NCBI GenBank assembly: GCA_964016885.1
Contig: CAXHJY010000715.1
Span: forward strand, 1 to 64,000
Length of the DNA: 64,000 nucleotides
Direction: 5' to 3'
Source of the DNA: Eledone cirrhosa
Lineage: Eukaryota
The notes below the pieces were generated by a model that worked only from the letters and a program-made list of their open reading frames with translations, did no database searches and was not told the origin of the DNA. A program made the position numbers and the translations under genes. Each line of letters opens with the position of its first letter. The stretch's first letter is position 1. Of the stretch, positions 13,011 to 58,968 are shown piece by piece.

Positions 13011-13091
<81 letters not shown>

Positions 13092-20732: not shown

Positions 20733-21230
20733 GTGTGTATGTGTGTGTGTGTTTGCTTGTGTGTCTAAATTATTGATATACATAGACAAAACATACATAC
20801 TCTCATACACACATAAACAGCAGATCAAAGTCTGTAGGATATACATATATGAATATATATACATATAAATATATATTAGAGTATGGGGTTAACAGACCAG
20901 AGAAGTGTGAACCATATCATGGTCTATCGGTTGTGAAGCAGATAAAAAGAAGCTCTCAGCGACCTGTATAAATGGTGCAAGTCGGAGCTTTATATATTAT
21001 TAAAATATCAGACCATATACAGTTGATTCAGGTTTATTTAAACATCCGTTATACATATTTCACTGAGGACTAACAGACGGCAAACCCTAAATTAAACATT
21101 AAATGTTCCTAAGAAACTTTTAAATTTGTAAAAATCCAATAATTTCCCCGGAAAAAATGTTTTCGTGATACATGGGGCCAGAACGCGTGGTGTCATTTCT
21201 TTGACGGCCAGCCCCTATATATATATATAT

Positions 21231-21421
21231 AACGAAGGAGGTGTGGTAAGGAACCAGATGGACCATAACGCACCAAAGTACTCAATACTTAGAGTAGTAG
21301 AGTGGGTAATAGGAAAATGTTTAACTCCGACAGCAGAGCTCAAGCCGTTTCGACGGTTATTTCTGGACTGAAATAGCCGTCAAAACGGCTTGAGCTCTGC
21401 TGTCGGGGTTAAACATTTTCC

Positions 21422-23256: not shown

Positions 23257-24564
23257 ATGTATGTATTCAGGAATTGCGAGCATGGTGTTTACATCCGATA
23301 TCGAACCTCAGGCAGCGTATTTAACATCAGGCGCTTTGCTGCAAAGACAAAAGTATTTACATCAATCATAAGAGACCTCTTGTATGCAGATGATTGCGAT
23401 CTTGTAGCGCACACAGAGAGTGATATGCAGCACATTTTGAATGCATTTTCTGACGCTTGCACTGCCCTGGGTTTGACTGTCAGTCTCAAGAAAACCGTCG
23501 TCATGTACCAACCTGCCCCTGGTAAGCAGTACACTGAACCAAACATCTATGTGTATGGCAAACGACTTGGAGTGGTTGATCAGTTTGTCTACCTGGGAAG
23601 CACTGTCAATCGATACGGCAACCTTGACATTGAAATCTCACTTAGGATTAGGAAAGCAAGTGATGCTTTCGGAAAGCTAGAAAGGCGACTCTGGGGTCGG
23701 CGAGACATATGCAGGAGGACAAAGGTAAAGGTGTACAGGGCATGTGTGCTCTCTTGTCTTCTTTATGCCTGCGAGACCTGGGTCACATATCGACACCACC
23801 TTAAGCAATTGGAGCGTTTCCATCAGATGTGTCTCAGACGGATCCATGGCGTTTACTGGAGGGACCACATCAGTGGTATCGAGATTTTGGAAAGCTCTAT
23901 GTGTGACAGTATAGAAGCTCTTGTGCTTAAGCAACGACTCCGTTGGAGTGGTCACCTTGCCAGGATGAAGGATTCTAGAATACCAAAACAACTCTTTTAT
24001 GGAGAGTTGGTTAAAGGAAAACGACCACCACATAAACCAAAAAAGAGGTATAAGGATTCCTTGAAAGCCTCTCTGAAAGACGCTAACATCTCTGCTGATA
24101 CATGGGAAAATATTGCTGCTGATCGTAATAAATGGAGAAAGACTGTATATGAGGGAAAAGTTGCCTTTGAGACATCTCGAATCGCATACGAGAAAGTAAA
24201 GCGGGATGTGAGGAAGGGCATTGCTGTTGCACTTCCAGACGGCGAGGGTCCTCCTATGGTGCTGACATGCAGCGTCTGTGCGAGACTCTGCCTAAGCAAA
24301 GCTGGACTCGAAAGTCATCTTCGCAGTCATAAAGTAAGACCAGTGGTTGACTACCAGGCTGCTGTTGGAGATGCTACTCATCATGCTTGCCAAACATGTG
24401 GTAGAGAATGTAAATCAGCAGGAGGGCTCAAGCGACATGCAAAAGTACACGAACTCCAACCACAGCCGACTATTCCCAGTAAATGTTTTGGTTGCCGACT
24501 CTGTGCAAGACATTTTAGATCATTGGCTGGGCTAAAAAGCCACATTCGATCGCAGCACTGTTAG
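23257..24564 (+). pseudogene. Truncated RTE ORF (RT C-terminal half plus 3 C2H2 fingers), 435 codons open
   Basis: From the ORF track. The start Met comes from the flanking TATG repeat. Fingers: CSVC..HLRSH, CQTC..HAKVH, CRLC..HIRSQH. Confidence 0.85.
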
Positions 24565-24862
24565 TTGCTATCGTGTGTGTGTGTATAGATATGTTTATGT
24601 GTGTGCGTCTATGTGTATATATATATGTATATGTATATTATTATTGTTGTTGTCGTTATTATTGTTGTTATTATTATTATTATTATTGTTATTAATGTAT
24701 GTGTGTGTGTATATGTGTGTGTGTATATGTGTATGTATGTGTGTATGTATATATATATATATATATATTTTTTTTTTCTATTAATTTTTTTTTTTTCTCC
24801 TCGTGCAATGGCCATACTCGATAACGAGGGGGCAGCCATCATCATGTATGTATGTATGTATG
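23265..24862 (+). mobile_element. RTE-clade LINE, 5'-truncated, with three C-terminal C2H2 zinc fingers and (TATG)n tail
   Basis: Open frame with LLYADD, FVYLGS, LLYACETW, LRWSGH and IPKQLFYGEL; 3' stem-loop ctcg ataa cgag; TATG repeats at both junctions. Confidence 0.92.
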
Positions 24863-49296: not shown

Positions 49297-49481
49297 AAGG
49301 GAATGTGGTAAGGAACCAGATGGACCATAACGCACCAGAGTACTCAATACTTAGGGTAGTAGAGTGGGAAATAGGAAAAAGTATAACCCCGACGGCAGAG
49401 CTCAAGCCGTTTCGGCGGCTATTTCTGGACGATTCCAGAAATAGCCGTCGAAACGACTTGAGCTCAGCCGTCGGGGTCATA

Positions 49482-49486
<5 letters not shown>
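49293..49486 (-). mobile_element. Second copy of the fold-back pLTR-like fragment
   Basis: Homologous to 21231-21424; hairpin 49377-49486; GAAA-cggc..gccg-TC on the minus strand. Confidence 0.7.
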
Positions 49487-49585: not shown

Positions 49586-49651
<66 letters not shown>

Positions 49652-49709
49652 CTATCTATCCATTTTTATCTATCCATATCTATACATTTATCTATCTCAC
49701 TTTCCATCC

Positions 49710-49781
<72 letters not shown>

Positions 49782-50010
49782 CTCTCTCTATCAGTCGTGT
49801 GTCACTTCGCGGAGAAGTTTCCGTTAATTTATGTAAGAAAAAAAACGTGAGTTTTTAGTTCAATTTTATATCATTGTGTAACTTGACCACCCGTCTGGAC
49901 CTTCAGGTGGTGGGTCAACTCATTTTCGCCCCTTCAGGGGCGGAATATCCATTTAAAAAATTTTTCTCCATCGAATCTTGGAAAAAATATTGTAAAATTT
50001 TGATTACGTT

Positions 50011-51928
50011 ATGAACGCTGCGTCCAACGATAATGGTGGTGGAGAGGCGGTAAGACTACAAAGCTCGCAGTCAACAACGTCTTCTTCACTAGATACTATA
50101 GAGATGGAAAGACAAAATGAAAATAAAAAAACGAATTCACATCCAAACAACACAAATGACACCAAACAGCTCAATGACAACAAAAATAACAGCAAAACCA
50201 ATAATGATGATAAAAGCAACAATGATAACAACAACAAAGAAAAAAATAAAGACAACGCCAATAACACCAGCATCAAAGACAACAACAACACCAAGGAAAA
50301 TACGGATGATACCAACATCGGTGACAACAAGAATAACAACAACAATAACAACAATAATGACAACACCACCAATACGGATTCCACAAAGAAACCAAAAATC
50401 TCCTTTGCGGAGAAAGTTCAAAAGAAAGAACAATTGATATATCTCGACATAACAAATGCTGAACACCTTTTAAAGGACGCTAAGAGATATGTCACCTTCG
50501 AAAAAAAATGGTGCTTTCAGCATCAATTCTCCGGTAGAAATTCGCAAGGAAACTGCTCTCAAAACGATAGTTTTTAGGACAGTTTCCAATTCTACCCGAA
50601 AACCAGTCCAATTGTCACAGAAAGATATTGAACTGGTTTTCAAAGATTCAATGAATGATATTGCATTCATTCAAAGAAGCAAACTTTTTGGGAGTATTTC
50701 GGTACTGATGAAGGATCAATTGACGGCTCAAAATTACTCTGTGTCGCCAATTGTATCCAACCTGTACACCTTTTTCCCTACATACATGGGAAAAAGGACA
50801 CAAAAGATCAGAATCACAAGTGTCACACCAAAGGTGAACATATGGTGGATACTGTGCGGCTTCATCAATTTTGATGAAGACAGAATACTGTCAGTAGGCA
50901 AGTCCCCCAGAGATGTATTCAATGGGACTAGCATTGAAGTTCTGGTGCAAATGAGCCCAGAGCGAATAGCTATGATCCCACAGCGTGTACTCCTGGACGG
51001 ACTTACCTACATAAACCTTTCGGTTGAGGGTAGGCGGCCTTCATGTTACCATTGCTTTAGCAGGGGTCACCTGAGGGCTTCCTGTCCTAAACTAATGAAC
51101 CAAAAAAAGGCTCTTCTGCCGACACCCATCAAAACAACACAACCACCAACACCACCACTACAACAACAACACCAACACACAAAAATAACCACAACAAACA
51201 CAGTCCCACCCAACCTCACTCCACCTAAAACCACTGCAAAATCACATACAGACACAACAGCTCCCCAAGACATACCCCTCCCCAATCACACAGACGATAC
51301 AACAGATGAGGCTATCTCGCCATCACCCAGTGAAGACGAGGGAGAACCCCATCGCTCGAAAAGAAAGAAAAGACATCACAAAAGCAAAAAACCAGCAAAC
51401 ACTACCACAAACATACAACCACCAACACAAACAACAAAAATATCACAAACAAAACCCCCACCTCCTGAAAACAAAATACCTACAACAAAACGAAAGCACA
51501 CACAAGAACTACAGACAAAAACAAACACAACACAAGAAAATTACACTTACACTTACATAAACACTGAAAACAAAACACTAATGGAGACCATTACGAACGA
51601 CCCTTCGGTTTTCACCGAAGGGAAAACTTTCGCCCACTCTATAAAAAATAGCAAAAAAATGAACCTAAAACTGATTAGGGTCCCTATACAAACTTATAGG
51701 TCCCTAAAAGAAACATTTGAGAAGGATGTGGGGAATTCCTGCGTGAAACCACTCAACCGCGTCCTTCTCAAATGCCTCCCCACCCCAGACACCCCCATCC
51801 CACCAGACCCCACCCCACCAAACATCTGCGTCCCCACCCCGCCGGAAACCACCACCCATCCAGACAACCCCTCCAACACCCCCATGGAAATCGTGCGGCC
51901 TGGTCCCCAGGAGGCGAAGGGTGAGTGA
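50011..51928 (+). CDS. Tx1 ORF1 (zinc knuckle CYHCFSRGHLRASC), split by one extra A in the A8 run at 50501-50508
   Basis: ORFs 50011-50577 and 50489-51928 join as ...VTFEKNGAF... if one A is removed; SFAEKV motif near the N-terminus. Confidence 0.75.
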
Positions 51929-51961
51929 TCTCTTTTCTTCTTTTAACTTTTCAGCACCAAC

Positions 51962-54900
51962 ATGGCCAATATAAGAGTTGGATGTGTGAACGTACGCGGC
52001 CTGGGGATGCCCTGGAAACAGGGCAAACTCTTAAACGACCTCAGGTCGCACAGTTTGGATGTGGTAGCCATTTGCGAGTCCAGGATCCACGGCGAGCGAC
52101 AGCTGGCCCCCATCTTCGATGACTTTGAGATCTACGCATCTCTCTGTCAACCGGGGGGTGGGGGCGGTGTTGCCGTTTTGCTGCGGAAACACCTGGGCCT
52201 CGTAACACAGACGGTTCATCTGGACCCGGAGGGTCGACTGGTGGTCCTAGACGTTGACGGTAGTGAAGGTGGAGCGTTCAGGCTGGTGGCCGCATATGCC
52301 CCATCCGGGACACCGCGGCCAGACTTCTTCAAACGTCTAGAGACTTTTCTGGGAACGTCCCGCTCCTTGCTTTTAGTGGGGGACTGGAATGGAATCCTAG
52401 ATGCACGTTGGGACTATGTGGGAGCATGTCCCGATAAAGGGGGGTGTAACAGCCTCAAACAGTTAATCGACCGATTTGACCTGGCCGATAGATATCGACT
52501 AGATTTTCCGACTGCGCCACTGTGGACGTGGAGTAATCGTAGCGGAACATCTAGATCGTACCTAGATAGGGTTCTAGTTAGAAATAAGGATAGGGACATG
52601 TTAAGCTGTCCACAAATGTTCATGGTTGCCTATTCAGATCACAAACTAGTGACCTGCATGGCCAACCTTGATAGAACCCATAGACAAGGACCCGGCTACT
52701 GGAAGCTGAACTTGTCGTTACCGACAAGCAAAGCCTACAGTAGACGGATTAGCACTTTAGTTAAACAGCACTTGACAGGGGCCATTGTCAACAACAGATG
52801 GTGGTACTCTCTCAAGAGGGCAGTTAGATTAGACTCGATAGTTTTTAGTAAAGAATTAGCGTTAGATAGAAATAGAACCGAGAAGGAACTGGTAGATAAA
52901 GTAGAAGAGGCTATTAGAAGTGGCAACGTAGCCAGCGTGCTAGCAACGAGAACGGCCTTGGACCAGTTCTTCGACGCAAAGCACGAGGGCTGCGTTGTCA
53001 GAAGCAAAATACGTGCTCTGGGAAACGAGGGAGCCAAAGCTGTTAGCTGGGCCCGAGTGACGGAGGCAAAAAGTGGCAACAAGTCCACGATTCGGTCTTT
53101 GAAGGACCAAAACGGACGCGTGATACGTGAGCCGAAGCAGATGTGTGCGGCTTTTCAGCGGCACTTTGCTCGGCTGTTCGGGGGGAGCGGCGCGCCGGGA
53201 GAGGCTATGGATTTCGGTCCATACCTCGACGGCCTACCGCGACTCTCGGACAGCGAGGCGAAGTTCTGCGAAAAGCCGATTTCAGCCACTGAGATAGGGG
53301 ACGCGCTGAGCCAATGCGGCAAACGCAAATCTCCAGGTCTCGACGGTCTACCCTACGAATTTTACGTAGCAATGCCGGACTTATTCTCCGGTCTCCTGGA
53401 AGCGGTCTACTGCAACTGGCAACAGAACGGGAGAATTCCCAGTTCTGTAACCGGGGGCGTGGTCACACTAATCAGGAAGGACGAGAATAAGGGGGATGAC
53501 ATAGGCAACTTCCGGCCCATAACTCTGCTAAACACAGAGTTACAGATTTTGGCCAAGGTGTTGGCAAAGAGGCTGGCGCTTGTCGTCGAGAACCTGGTGG
53601 GAGAAGCGCAGACATGCGCGATCCCGACCAGGTCCATACACGACAACCTCCACCTCATGCGATACATCATAGAGAGGGTAGGGTGTAAACCCGGCTTCGG
53701 TGGGGCCCTGATCAACTTGGATCAGTCTAAGGCTTTCGATAGGGTTGACCATCGTTACCTGGATGCGGTGCTCGAGGCGGCAGGCTTCGGACCCGTGTTC
53801 AGGAGCTGGATTGCTGCAATGCACAACAGCAACATCTGCTCAAGGGTCAAGGTGAACGGTTACCTCTCGGAGCCGTTCCATATTACGCGATCCATTCGAC
53901 AGGGATGCCCTCTCTCCTCCCTTCTGTACGTACTGACTCTCGAGCCACTACTGCGGAAGCTGGAGCTATTGCAGGGCATCCCTCTGGAACCGGGACTGCG
54001 GAAAGCGGCGTCGGCCTACGCCGACGACGTGACAGTAATGGTGTCGAGCGCCTCGCAAATCGAGGAAGTCGGCACCTTACTAAAGGAATACGAAAGTCTC
54101 ACAGGAGCGAAGCTGAACCGGGACAAGTCCATCGGTTTGCAACTCGGATCGTGGAGAGGCAGACCGATGCCTTCCGATGGCGTCGTCGGACGCTGGACGG
54201 AAGGACCGGTAAAGCTGCTCGGGGTCTGGTTTGGTCCGGACCTCCAGGTGGAGAAGAACTGGAACGAAGTGACGGCCAAGGTGTTTGCACTCACCCAGAA
54301 GTGGGCCGAGTGCAAACTATCCTTGAAAGGTCGAGCGGAGGTGGCGAACACTTTTATAGCGTCCGCCATCTACTACCGCTTGACCGTCGTGCCTTGTCCA
54401 GCCAAAACGCTCGCCAAAATGGAGCGCGCCCTCTTCCGATTCCTTTGGAAGAGGCGGGCTCCTTTGGTAAGAAGATCCATCTGCTGCCAACACCCTTCTA
54501 ACGGAGGGCTGGGGATGCCGTGGTTGACGATGCGCAAACACGCGCTCAGGCTGCGGCATCTCTACGTATTCCTCACCGGACAACCGGTGTGGGCCCCGTT
54601 CGTGAGGCGAGCCTTCCCACGACTCGTCTCGCTGACCGAGCTGCAGTCCTGGGTCAAGCAGAGACCGAGGAAAATGGGCGACTGGCACATCGAATGTGCT
54701 CAGGCGCTCACAGCCCTCTGGCAGGCGGACCCGGCGATCAGTGGAGACTCCACTTCGTCATTCTATAGAGGGTTGGTCCGCAGCAAGTGCGACGACGCGC
54801 TCGGTGAAACTCTAGGCGTGGAGGAAGATGAACTGGCCAGTCTGTTCGGTAGGACCTTCCGCCCGGGACCGATGGACAACTTCCAAAAGTCCCTGGCCTG

Positions 54901-55399
54901 GCAGTGCTACCGAGGAGCTCTACCAGTTCGAGACAAGCTCTACAGACATGGGCGCCCGGGCAGGGACCCTGCAAAAAAGATCTGTCCGAGGTGCGTGCGA
55001 GACGAAGAAACCGTCGCGCACGCATTCATACACTGCCCGGGCGTCACTGACCTGTGGGGCTATGTAGAACGACTATTGTCGCGGGTGGGACCAATCCGGT
55101 TGACCACCGAGTCCATTGTCATGATCAAACCGCCACCCTCCTTCAAAAACGAAGGAGAGGCGGTTTTCCTTTGTGTGATAGCTATGGCGAAAGAGGTTGT
55201 ATGGTGGACAAGGTTGAAAGGGCTGAGGTCAGACACCTTTCTCTCCGGCCAACAACTGATTCTTTTTTTCAAATACCACTTTGGAAGAAGAATCAGGATG
55301 GAGAGAGAGGTGCTGTACCCCAGCAAGTTTTATGAAAGGTGGGTGAAAGTGGCGAGAATGGCCCGAGTGAATGGGCCTTCTCTCTATATCAGCCTGTAG
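51962..55399 (+). CDS. Tx1 ORF2: APE endonuclease + reverse transcriptase + CCHC, 1145 aa, uninterrupted
   Basis: NVRGL, GDWN, SYLDRV, SDH (APE); KSPGLDG, FRPITLLN, LDQSKAFDRVDH, RQGCPLS, YADD (RT); CPRC...HAFIHC. Confidence 0.95.
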   Translation: MANIRVGCVNVRGLGMPWKQGKLLNDLRSHSLDVVAICESRIHGERQLAPIFDDFEIYASLCQPGGGGGVAVLLRKHLGLVTQTVHLDPEGRLVVLDVDGSEGGAFRLVAAYAPSGTPRPDFFKRLETFLGTSRSLLLVGDWNGILDARWDYVGACPDKGGCNSLKQLIDRFDLADRYRLDFPTAPLWTWSNRSGTSRSYLDRVLVRNKDRDMLSCPQMFMVAYSDHKLVTCMANLDRTHRQGPGYWKLNLSLPTSKAYSRRISTLVKQHLTGAIVNNRWWYSLKRAVRLDSIVFSKELALDRNRTEKELVDKVEEAIRSGNVASVLATRTALDQFFDAKHEGCVVRSKIRALGNEGAKAVSWARVTEAKSGNKSTIRSLKDQNGRVIREPKQMCAAFQRHFARLFGGSGAPGEAMDFGPYLDGLPRLSDSEAKFCEKPISATEIGDALSQCGKRKSPGLDGLPYEFYVAMPDLFSGLLEAVYCNWQQNGRIPSSVTGGVVTLIRKDENKGDDIGNFRPITLLNTELQILAKVLAKRLALVVENLVGEAQTCAIPTRSIHDNLHLMRYIIERVGCKPGFGGALINLDQSKAFDRVDHRYLDAVLEAAGFGPVFRSWIAAMHNSNICSRVKVNGYLSEPFHITRSIRQGCPLSSLLYVLTLEPLLRKLELLQGIPLEPGLRKAASAYADDVTVMVSSASQIEEVGTLLKEYESLTGAKLNRDKSIGLQLGSWRGRPMPSDGVVGRWTEGPVKLLGVWFGPDLQVEKNWNEVTAKVFALTQKWAECKLSLKGRAEVANTFIASAIYYRLTVVPCPAKTLAKMERALFRFLWKRRAPLVRRSICCQHPSNGGLGMPWLTMRKHALRLRHLYVFLTGQPVWAPFVRRAFPRLVSLTELQSWVKQRPRKMGDWHIECAQALTALWQADPAISGDSTSSFYRGLVRSKCDDALGETLGVEEDELASLFGRTFRPGPMDNFQKSLAWQCYRGALPVRDKLYRHGRPGRDPAKKICPRCVRDEETVAHAFIHCPGVTDLWGYVERLLSRVGPIRLTTESIVMIKPPPSFKNEGEAVFLCVIAMAKEVVWWTRLKGLRSDTFLSGQQLILFFKYHFGRRIRMEREVLYPSKFYERWVKVARMARVNGPSLYISL

Positions 55400-55638
55400 G
55401 TTGAGGAAAAGGAGGAGGAGAGGAAAGGAGTACAAGCTCTTCGTACTCCTGGAGATGAGGGTTGCACATTTTTTTCGGGGGTCTGTGTTACCCATATAAA
55501 CTGTCTCCCTCTATTGGGGAAAATCGACTAACTTTTAAATTCCATCTGTGATAACATTTTACACGTTTTTATTGTATGTAAACTTCCCCCTTTGTATTTG
55601 TCCCCTTCTTTTGTGCCCCTGTGGCTAATAAAGAAATA

Positions 55639-55690
<52 letters not shown>

Positions 55691-56361
55691 CATCTACGAC
55701 ACGATGTAACAGGCTATTGAACAGCGTGAGATTTAAAACCAAACATCACGTATATCACGTGTATCTATCTAATCCACCTCACTTCAATCCTGCAGTCAGT
55801 ACAACGACTGCTTCCACCTTCCACATTTCAATACCTCCAGTGAAACCAACGAACGGAAAAGGAACATCATATGACTTAGTCTCTTATAACATGATATACA
55901 CACATATGTGTGCGTGTGTATATACACGCATGTATATATATATATATATATATATATTTGCATATGTATATAAATACACACAAGGTTGAGATCAAAAAGA
56001 TCAACAAGCCCCTACTGACAAGTTTGATGTCTTGTGTTCGGGTGACATTATTGCTTACAGTATATATAATATCGTTTATTATCACTTATATTAAAAAATT
56101 CTGGACCGGTTTTCACACACATACACACATATCTATGTATGTATATTTATATATATATATGTACATATATATATGTATATATATATATATGTGTATGTAT
56201 GTATGTATTTATATATATATATATATATTATACATATAAACAAACACTCGCGCACACACACACGCGCATATGCAAACATACATATATATATATACATATA
56301 TATATATATAATATATAAGTATATATATATGTGTGTATATATATATATATATAATATATAA

Positions 56362-58733: not shown

Positions 58734-58802
<69 letters not shown>

Positions 58803-58825: not shown

Positions 58826-58916
58826 TATTAATATTATATGATTTTTATGTAAAACCCCCGCCGTCACGTCTTGTAATGTCCCATTTTTTGTACTCCCTTG
58901 TGGCAAATAAAGAAAG
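58826..58916 (+). mobile_element. Very short 3' fragment of a Tx1-related element in (TATC)n
   Basis: tatgtaaaaccccc...ttgtaatgtccc...cccttgtggcaaataaagaaa resembles the 3' end at 55575-55636; (TATC)n on both sides. Confidence 0.65.
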
Positions 58917-58917
58917 A

Positions 58918-58968
<51 letters not shown>

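Follow-up and report, generated by a model that had tools for sequence, protein, structure and literature searches.

Does a retrotransposon that lies between two arrays of the same short repeat prefer that repeat as its landing site? The question is raised by a 64,000-nt stretch of Eledone cirrhosa DNA (contig CAXHJY010000715.1, positions 1 to 64,000; hereafter the window, within which all tract counts below were made, on both strands). We identified a full-length Tx1-type retrotransposon without long terminal repeats (LTRs), i.e., a long interspersed nuclear element (LINE), at 49793-55638 on the forward strand. It comprises two open reading frames (ORF1 and ORF2) and an AATAAA signal without poly(A), with (TATC)n at each end. 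The LINE is real and well preserved, and its microsatellite target is probably a new one. A real preference of the family for (TATC)n is likely.

The element and its (TATC)n flanks

Both ends of the element adjoin (TATC)n and poly(A) is missing, as the initial annotation of this DNA had claimed: (TATC)17 lies upstream and (TATC)13 downstream. The same annotation had described a diverged 3' fragment of about 90 bp with its own (TATC)n in the same orientation, and this was also found, between (TATC)16 and (TATC)12. The fragment resembles the 3' untranslated region (UTR) of the element (82% over 44 bp, E 0.002 by blastn). By this measure, the two copies differ in age or subfamily. The two insertions and their flanks are made up of:

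49650-49792 (+): 5' flank, the inferred target array; degenerate TATC at 49650-49712, (TATC)17 at 49713-49780, TCTCTCTC, TATC
49793-50010 (+): 5' UTR; CpG observed/expected 1.37; holds an A8 run at 49838-49845
50011-51928 (+): ORF1, in two frames, split at an A8 run
51962-55399 (+): ORF2, 1145 aa
55400-55638 (+): 3' UTR, closing with AATAAA GAAATA, without poly(A)
55639-55690 (+): 3' flank, (TATC)13, beginning six bases past AATAAA
58736-58825 (+): 5' flank of the fragment; (TATC)16 at 58736-58799, then a decayed TATC stretch
about 58826-58917 (+): 3' fragment, diverged and 5'-truncated, from this family or a sister family; its 5' edge is placed to within about 20 bp
58918-58965 (+): 3' flank of the fragment, (TATC)12

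The first letters of the element, AGTCGTGTG, begin at 49793, and (TATC)17 stops at 49780, 12 bp upstream. The start is placed at 49792-49793, with the exact base ambiguous; other copies share sequence from 49793 onward. Across the junction of array and element, TCAGTC (49791-49796) resembles what we take to be the initiator-type motif of LINE internal promoters. No LTRs were detected by self-blast of the window. Copies in the L1 group are often 5'-truncated, and a truncated fragment is present here. A conserved stem-loop was not identified: folding is no better than in shuffled sequences for the 3' UTR (z -0.46), for the fragment (z -0.46) and for the first 148 nt of the element (z -0.60).

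Chance, target preference and the alternatives

There are five perfect TATC tracts (at least 3 units, either strand) among the 231 perfect simple-repeat tracts of the window. Four of the five adjoin the element and the fragment, placing (TATC)12-17 on both sides of each in the same orientation; the fifth, at 13013-13088, has no piece of the element beside it. TATC tracts occupy 0.5% of the window outside the element, so that by chance about 0.3% of second insertions would agree in both motif and orientation. We use this figure rather than the 7e-6 calculated for two insertions because the motif was chosen after being seen. As an internal control, two further LINE families are represented in the window, by five and three copies or pieces, respectively. 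None of these eight adjoins a TATC tract, and the link to TATC is thus family-specific. All four junctions carry (TATC)n, one of them with 8 bp of TC adjacent, so the flanks are not of the (TC)n or (TTC)n kind. In the part of PMC4494074 available to us, a target is recognized where more than 20% of copies share it; here, both window copies and the two tandem joints seen (described below) lie at TATC, a small sample.

The tandem joints come from sequencing runs that contain other copies. At least 0.2 of the sampled words are present in 11 of 24 runs, under eight organism labels, and four runs (X1, X4, X5 and X23) were used for comparison; runs sharing few of the words were left aside. In X23, the 3' end of one copy is joined to a 5'-truncated copy starting at 54317 via 23 letters of near-perfect TATC repeat (111-112 reads); all reads share one start, and the joint therefore represents one locus. 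The element itself reads CTATC at 54317, one of two such words in 5844 bp. In X5, the 3' end leads through one more TATC into a 5'-truncated copy starting at 55356. A site-specific element leaves tandem copies of this kind, with its target between them. Of the 493 between-joint rows, 12 were examined, as were 24 of the 8,373 rows with loose ends; sequence was viewed as far as the ends of the stretch.

Several observations weigh against a target preference. Only two independent insertions have a visible host-side 5' flank, and they are 3 kb apart. None of the 24 loose ends examined (of 8,373) is a TATC run, and both tandem joints could come from template jumping onto tailed RNA. Further, the nearest sister families for which DNA is available (40% ORF2 identity) have no TATC run in their arrays. 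The GATA-repeat targeting proposed in the initial annotation is likely, but was observed for only two insertions in the window and two tandem joints elsewhere.

Of the possible mechanisms, we consider likely one led by the endonuclease, in which a full-length Tx1-type LINE has entered a (TATC)n array and belongs to a family that prefers such arrays. As in known LINE biology, the ORF1 and ORF2 proteins would bind the element RNA. The APE endonuclease would nick the (GATA)n strand, and ordinary target-primed reverse transcription would start at the resulting 3' end. Insertion would leave array on both sides, so that any target-site duplication would be hidden within the repeat. The endonuclease would provide most of the preference. 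It would probably be aided by a short UAUC tail, gained by read-through, that pairs with the nicked strand; in view of the missing poly(A), transcripts may end in a few UAUC units. Because the tail alone cannot explain the long 5' arrays, a preference for existing arrays would be the simplest reading. In the sections available, published work reports that the endonuclease of Tx1L nicks its own target almost exclusively (PMC1950540) and that the APE clades with site-specific members are Tx1 and R1 (PMC6007223, PMC4640811).

The missing poly(A) and the direct passage of the 3' end into TATC, in both copies and both tandem joints, also fit a preference that is real but led by RNA. In that case, the nick would be placed loosely, and a (UAUC)n tail would anneal to (GATA)n there and prime reverse transcription, a role that has been proposed for the tails of RTE, CR1 and L2. 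For RTE, I, R1Bm and R2Ol, pairing between tail and target has been described (PMC6007223, in part). However, the 3' microhomology given there for animals is just one or two bases, in contrast to the long two-sided arrays seen here, and the Tx1L endonuclease is sequence-specific on its own (PMC1950540, in part). We regard this explanation as unlikely, although the endonuclease-led and RNA-led mechanisms are not mutually exclusive.

It is also quite improbable that the element makes its own TATC tail and has no target preference, with 5' arrays of local origin (an existing TATC patch, or short duplications expanded by slippage). The proximity of the copies (3 kb), their small number and the many simple-repeat tracts in the window would suit this idea. 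It is opposed by the low chance of a second match calculated above, by the difference in age or subfamily between the copies, and by 5' arrays that are long and decay outward.

The window contains two other LINE families with simple repeats at their ends. The first of these, encoded on the reverse strand (32412-28194, 26713-26020, 25385-24899 and 20135-19577), has a reverse transcriptase (RT) identified by Pfam, and from its motifs we take it to be of the Dong/R4-like type with a restriction-like endonuclease (RLE). One near-full and three 5'-truncated copies are about 95% alike, and (CATA)n occurs at both junctions in all four copies that retain the 3' end. The case for microsatellite targeting is clearer in this family than for the Tx1-type element. 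The other family is represented by 23267-24572 (+), 46246-44971 (-) and 34682-34205 (-), and its ORF closes with several C2H2 zinc fingers. Of its three copies, two have (TATG)n directly before their start and two have (TG)n at their end. LINEs embedded in microsatellites are thus not rare in this genome.

Coding capacity, relatives and age

ORF2 runs from an ATG at 51962 to a TAG at 55399 (1145 aa) with no internal stops. The description of an uninterrupted frame rich in GC and CpG holds, with GC 0.549 compared with 0.349 for the remaining window and CpG observed/expected 0.92 compared with 0.64. We identified an APE endonuclease (aa 1-240), an RVT_1 domain with YADD (aa 511-755) and a C-terminal CX2CX8HX4C zinc finger, with Pfam matches to PF03372, PF00078 and PF13966 (Exo_endo_phos, RVT_1 and zf-RVT, respectively). 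This order (N-terminal APE, RT and C-terminal zinc finger) is that of the L1 group, and human L1 ORF2p matches ORF2 with 178 bits (E 1.8e-51). The endonuclease model has a predicted local distance difference test (pLDDT) value of 89.5, and its best structural match is the L1 endonuclease (template modelling (TM) score 0.84). N10, E39, Y112, D141, N143, D202 and H227 are kept, and align with what we take to be the catalytic residues of that enzyme. The element had been called nearly intact, which is correct in that ORF2 is open. However, the frame is not pristine: Q528 is K in 14 of 15 aligned relatives and in human L1, H621 is Y in all 15, and there is one extra residue beside H621. The base at 53804 differs from nearly all of the X1 depth (188,600/188,892).

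ORF1 is encoded in two frames, one from the ATG at 50011 and open to 50577, the other open over 50474-51928. The break had been attributed to an A8 run, and the run, at 50501-50508, indeed falls inside the overlap of the frames. In order, ORF1 encodes an N-terminus rich in N, D and K, a predicted tandem RNA recognition motif (RRM; about 50537-51040), a CX2CX4HX4C knuckle and a tail rich in P, T and K. The Tx1 clade is marked by an ORF1 with one or more RRMs and a CCHC knuckle, and ORF1 of this element has the knuckle and the predicted tandem RRM. The top Foldseek matches of the model (pLDDT 79.7) are tandem RRMs (best E 1.6e-5, TM only 0.3-0.4). The knuckle is invariant in 8 of 8 ORF1s, and its Pfam zf-CCHC match (E 0.076) is below the cut-off. 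The ORF1 core is 20-25% identical to ORF1s of sister elements. Pfam found no match in the whole ORF1 halves, and none of 179 candidates in a search for ORF1 homologs was significant.

The reads that bear on an A7 or A8 run show mostly the shorter form in other copies. At 50501, one base is absent from 117 of 143 raw X23 reads (14 starts) and from the single X4 contig, which accounts for all depth at that place. The same holds for 1027 of 2391 depth units of X1, whereas X5 offers no depth at this position. Of 30 X23 reads over the second A8 run, in the 5' UTR (49838-49845), 28 likewise lack one base. Since other copies are mostly one base shorter, the ORF1 break is not a family trait: either the homopolymer gained one base in this copy or the assembly is in error, two cases that are indistinguishable because the reads of other copies come from many loci. 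The base is not missing in 26 of the 143 X23 reads and in more than half of the X1 depth at the run. Even so, it is highly improbable that the frameshift is a genuine programmed one or that ORF1 is naturally divided into two ORFs, given the shorter form in most X23 reads and the X4 contig, the mostly continuous ORF1 of relatives (about 640-730 codons) and the recurrence of the one-base excess at the second run.

The end of ORF1 and the 33-bp spacer before ORF2 (51921-51954) include a splice-donor-like GTGAGT and a polypyrimidine tract ending in TTTTCAG just before the ORF2 ATG. This tract is possibly a candidate acceptor for a spliced ORF2 message.

We identified 71 proteins related to ORF2 at E ≤1e-50. 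The best is 71% identical, the next group is 37-47% identical, and none of the close ones is named. Two quick trees were made from 79 and 34 of 140 RT rows after removal of near-duplicates, and contain no named Tx1L, Kibi, Koshi or L1 row. In these, the element, the protein P0001 and the 37-47% group form one branch of 10-11 rows, with Shimodaira-Hasegawa-like approximate likelihood ratio test (SH-aLRT) support of 97 and 100. The branch is long, separate and not nested among rows flanked by small nuclear RNA (snRNA), as far as trees without named Tx1 and L1 references can show. The best scores outside the branch (388-454 bits, compared with 178 for human L1 ORF2p) belong to snRNA-flanked elements.

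The snRNA flanks were identified by Rfam at two loci (L008 and L112) and by eye at two others (L004 and L007). The Keno-like L004 and L008 have an A-tail at the 3' end, followed by the 3' part of U2 snRNA. L112 (3036-3199 and 9961-10137; filed under a bacterial metagenome-assembled genome (MAG)) and the 5' end of L007 are Tx1-like elements starting in or beside U1 snRNA sequence. Targeting of U2 defines Keno, a Tx1 family, in the available portion of PMC4494074. Because the best scores outside its own branch go to U2- and U1-flanked elements, the Tx1-like assignment made initially is supported, together with the domains and the predicted ORF1 fold.

Sister families were identified at 40 loci with ORF2s 39-44% identical to that of the element (L072-L110 and L113-L114, 41 rows, one partial). 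These loci are in contigs filed under a bacterial MAG (a GTDB genome), which are evidently contaminating host DNA. The copies are arranged in head-to-tail arrays that repeat about every 6.4-6.8 kb, and even distant families have in common a block of about 230 bp in the spacer; no tRNA (7 loci) and no Rfam match at threshold were detected in the spacer. None of 116 loci compared has at least 3 TATC units, and over ORF2 the closest of them reach about 40% identity. As the sister arrays lack a TATC run, the (TATC)n target is not common to the whole clade. Clustered insertion seems common in the branch of the element, though the target differs. In viral contigs, we found no relative at the protein level and no match to the 3' end followed by TATC.

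The length of the endonuclease hairpin loop is uninformative. The loop has 9 residues in the element, two fewer than in the sister arrays (11). Human L1 likewise has nine residues, as do five of the six rows that are Keno-like or related.

Records at least 99% alike number 8,216 of 45,158 in X1, 190 of 4,740 in X4, 9,171 of 123,272 in X5 and 3,198 of 213,908 in X23. Over the 5' UTR and ORF1, X4 contigs differ at 8/559 (plus 13 gap letters), 10/418, 5/405 and 10/819 letters. Toward the 3' end, the X1 depth climbs from 15,015 (first bin) to 821,738 (bin 29), a rise to which related families contribute. The near-identical records and X4 contigs show that the family has young members alongside many older or related ones. 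The suggestion that the element may still be active does not follow from this, as Q528 and H621 deviate from relatives and ORF1 is broken in the assembly.

Elsewhere in the window, a short repeat with an internal inverted repeat lies between (TA)n tracts in at least two copies (49297-49484 and about 21220-21368). It looks like a piece of a miniature inverted-repeat transposable element (MITE) or a short interspersed nuclear element (SINE). Positions 1-1208 hold 2.8 tandem copies, 98% alike, of a unit of about 437-441 bp.

Relation to known elements and significance

Tx1 families that target microsatellites are an established kind. In the part of PMC4494074 available, the targets given are (TC)n and (TTC)n for Kibi and Koshi, and (TTCC)n or (TTTC)n for Tx1 families of crocodilians. 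These families resemble the element in being APE elements of the Tx1 clade within microsatellites. They differ, in a comparison of descriptions only, in being vertebrate and in using pyrimidine-only repeats rather than (TATC)n. Keno and other snRNA-targeting Tx1 elements (L004 and L008 at U2, L112 and L007 at U1) share the ORF1 knuckle and the ORF2 layout, but their RT is only about 37% identical, their target is another one and the Keno-like copies are A-tailed. Human LINE-1 shares the APE fold, the RT, the C-terminal zinc finger and the length of the endonuclease hairpin loop. Unlike LINE-1, the element combines a CCHC knuckle with a predicted double RRM in its ORF1 and lacks poly(A), and the sequence score between the two is much lower.

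L1-Tx1 elements are listed as expanded in coleoids (PMC8967140, in part), and for Octopus vulgaris, 421 insertions are reported from 13 L1-Tx1 families with recent activity (PMC13282606, in part). The repeat landscape of the window looks octopus-like, and if the host is an octopus, the element may be one of these 13 families, for which no target preference is stated in the searched parts of that paper and its supplement. The accessible part of PMC9115989 covers RTE and Dong only. We found no report of a LINE targeting GATA/TATC in the literature searched; Repbase and Dfam were outside that search, and the family may thus have been catalogued earlier.

A broader scenario is conceivable, though we hold it doubtful. 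A deep, separate Tx1 branch would have evolved (GATA)n targeting independently, and unrelated LINE clades would partition the microsatellites, with (TATC)n used here and (CATA)n by the RLE type. By splitting arrays and adding tail repeats, insertions would breed new landing pads, and could account for most long GATA arrays (4 of 5 in the window).

The (TATC)n repeat would add a target, not a mechanism, and the known workings of LINEs are unchanged by the finding. If it is confirmed, the few APE endonucleases known to be sequence-specific would be joined by one with a new target motif, and the element and its sister families, with their different target, would be a natural pair for the study of specificity change. 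Many GATA microsatellites in this genome would then be insertion scars, which would be relevant to marker design and to the richness of the genome in simple repeats.

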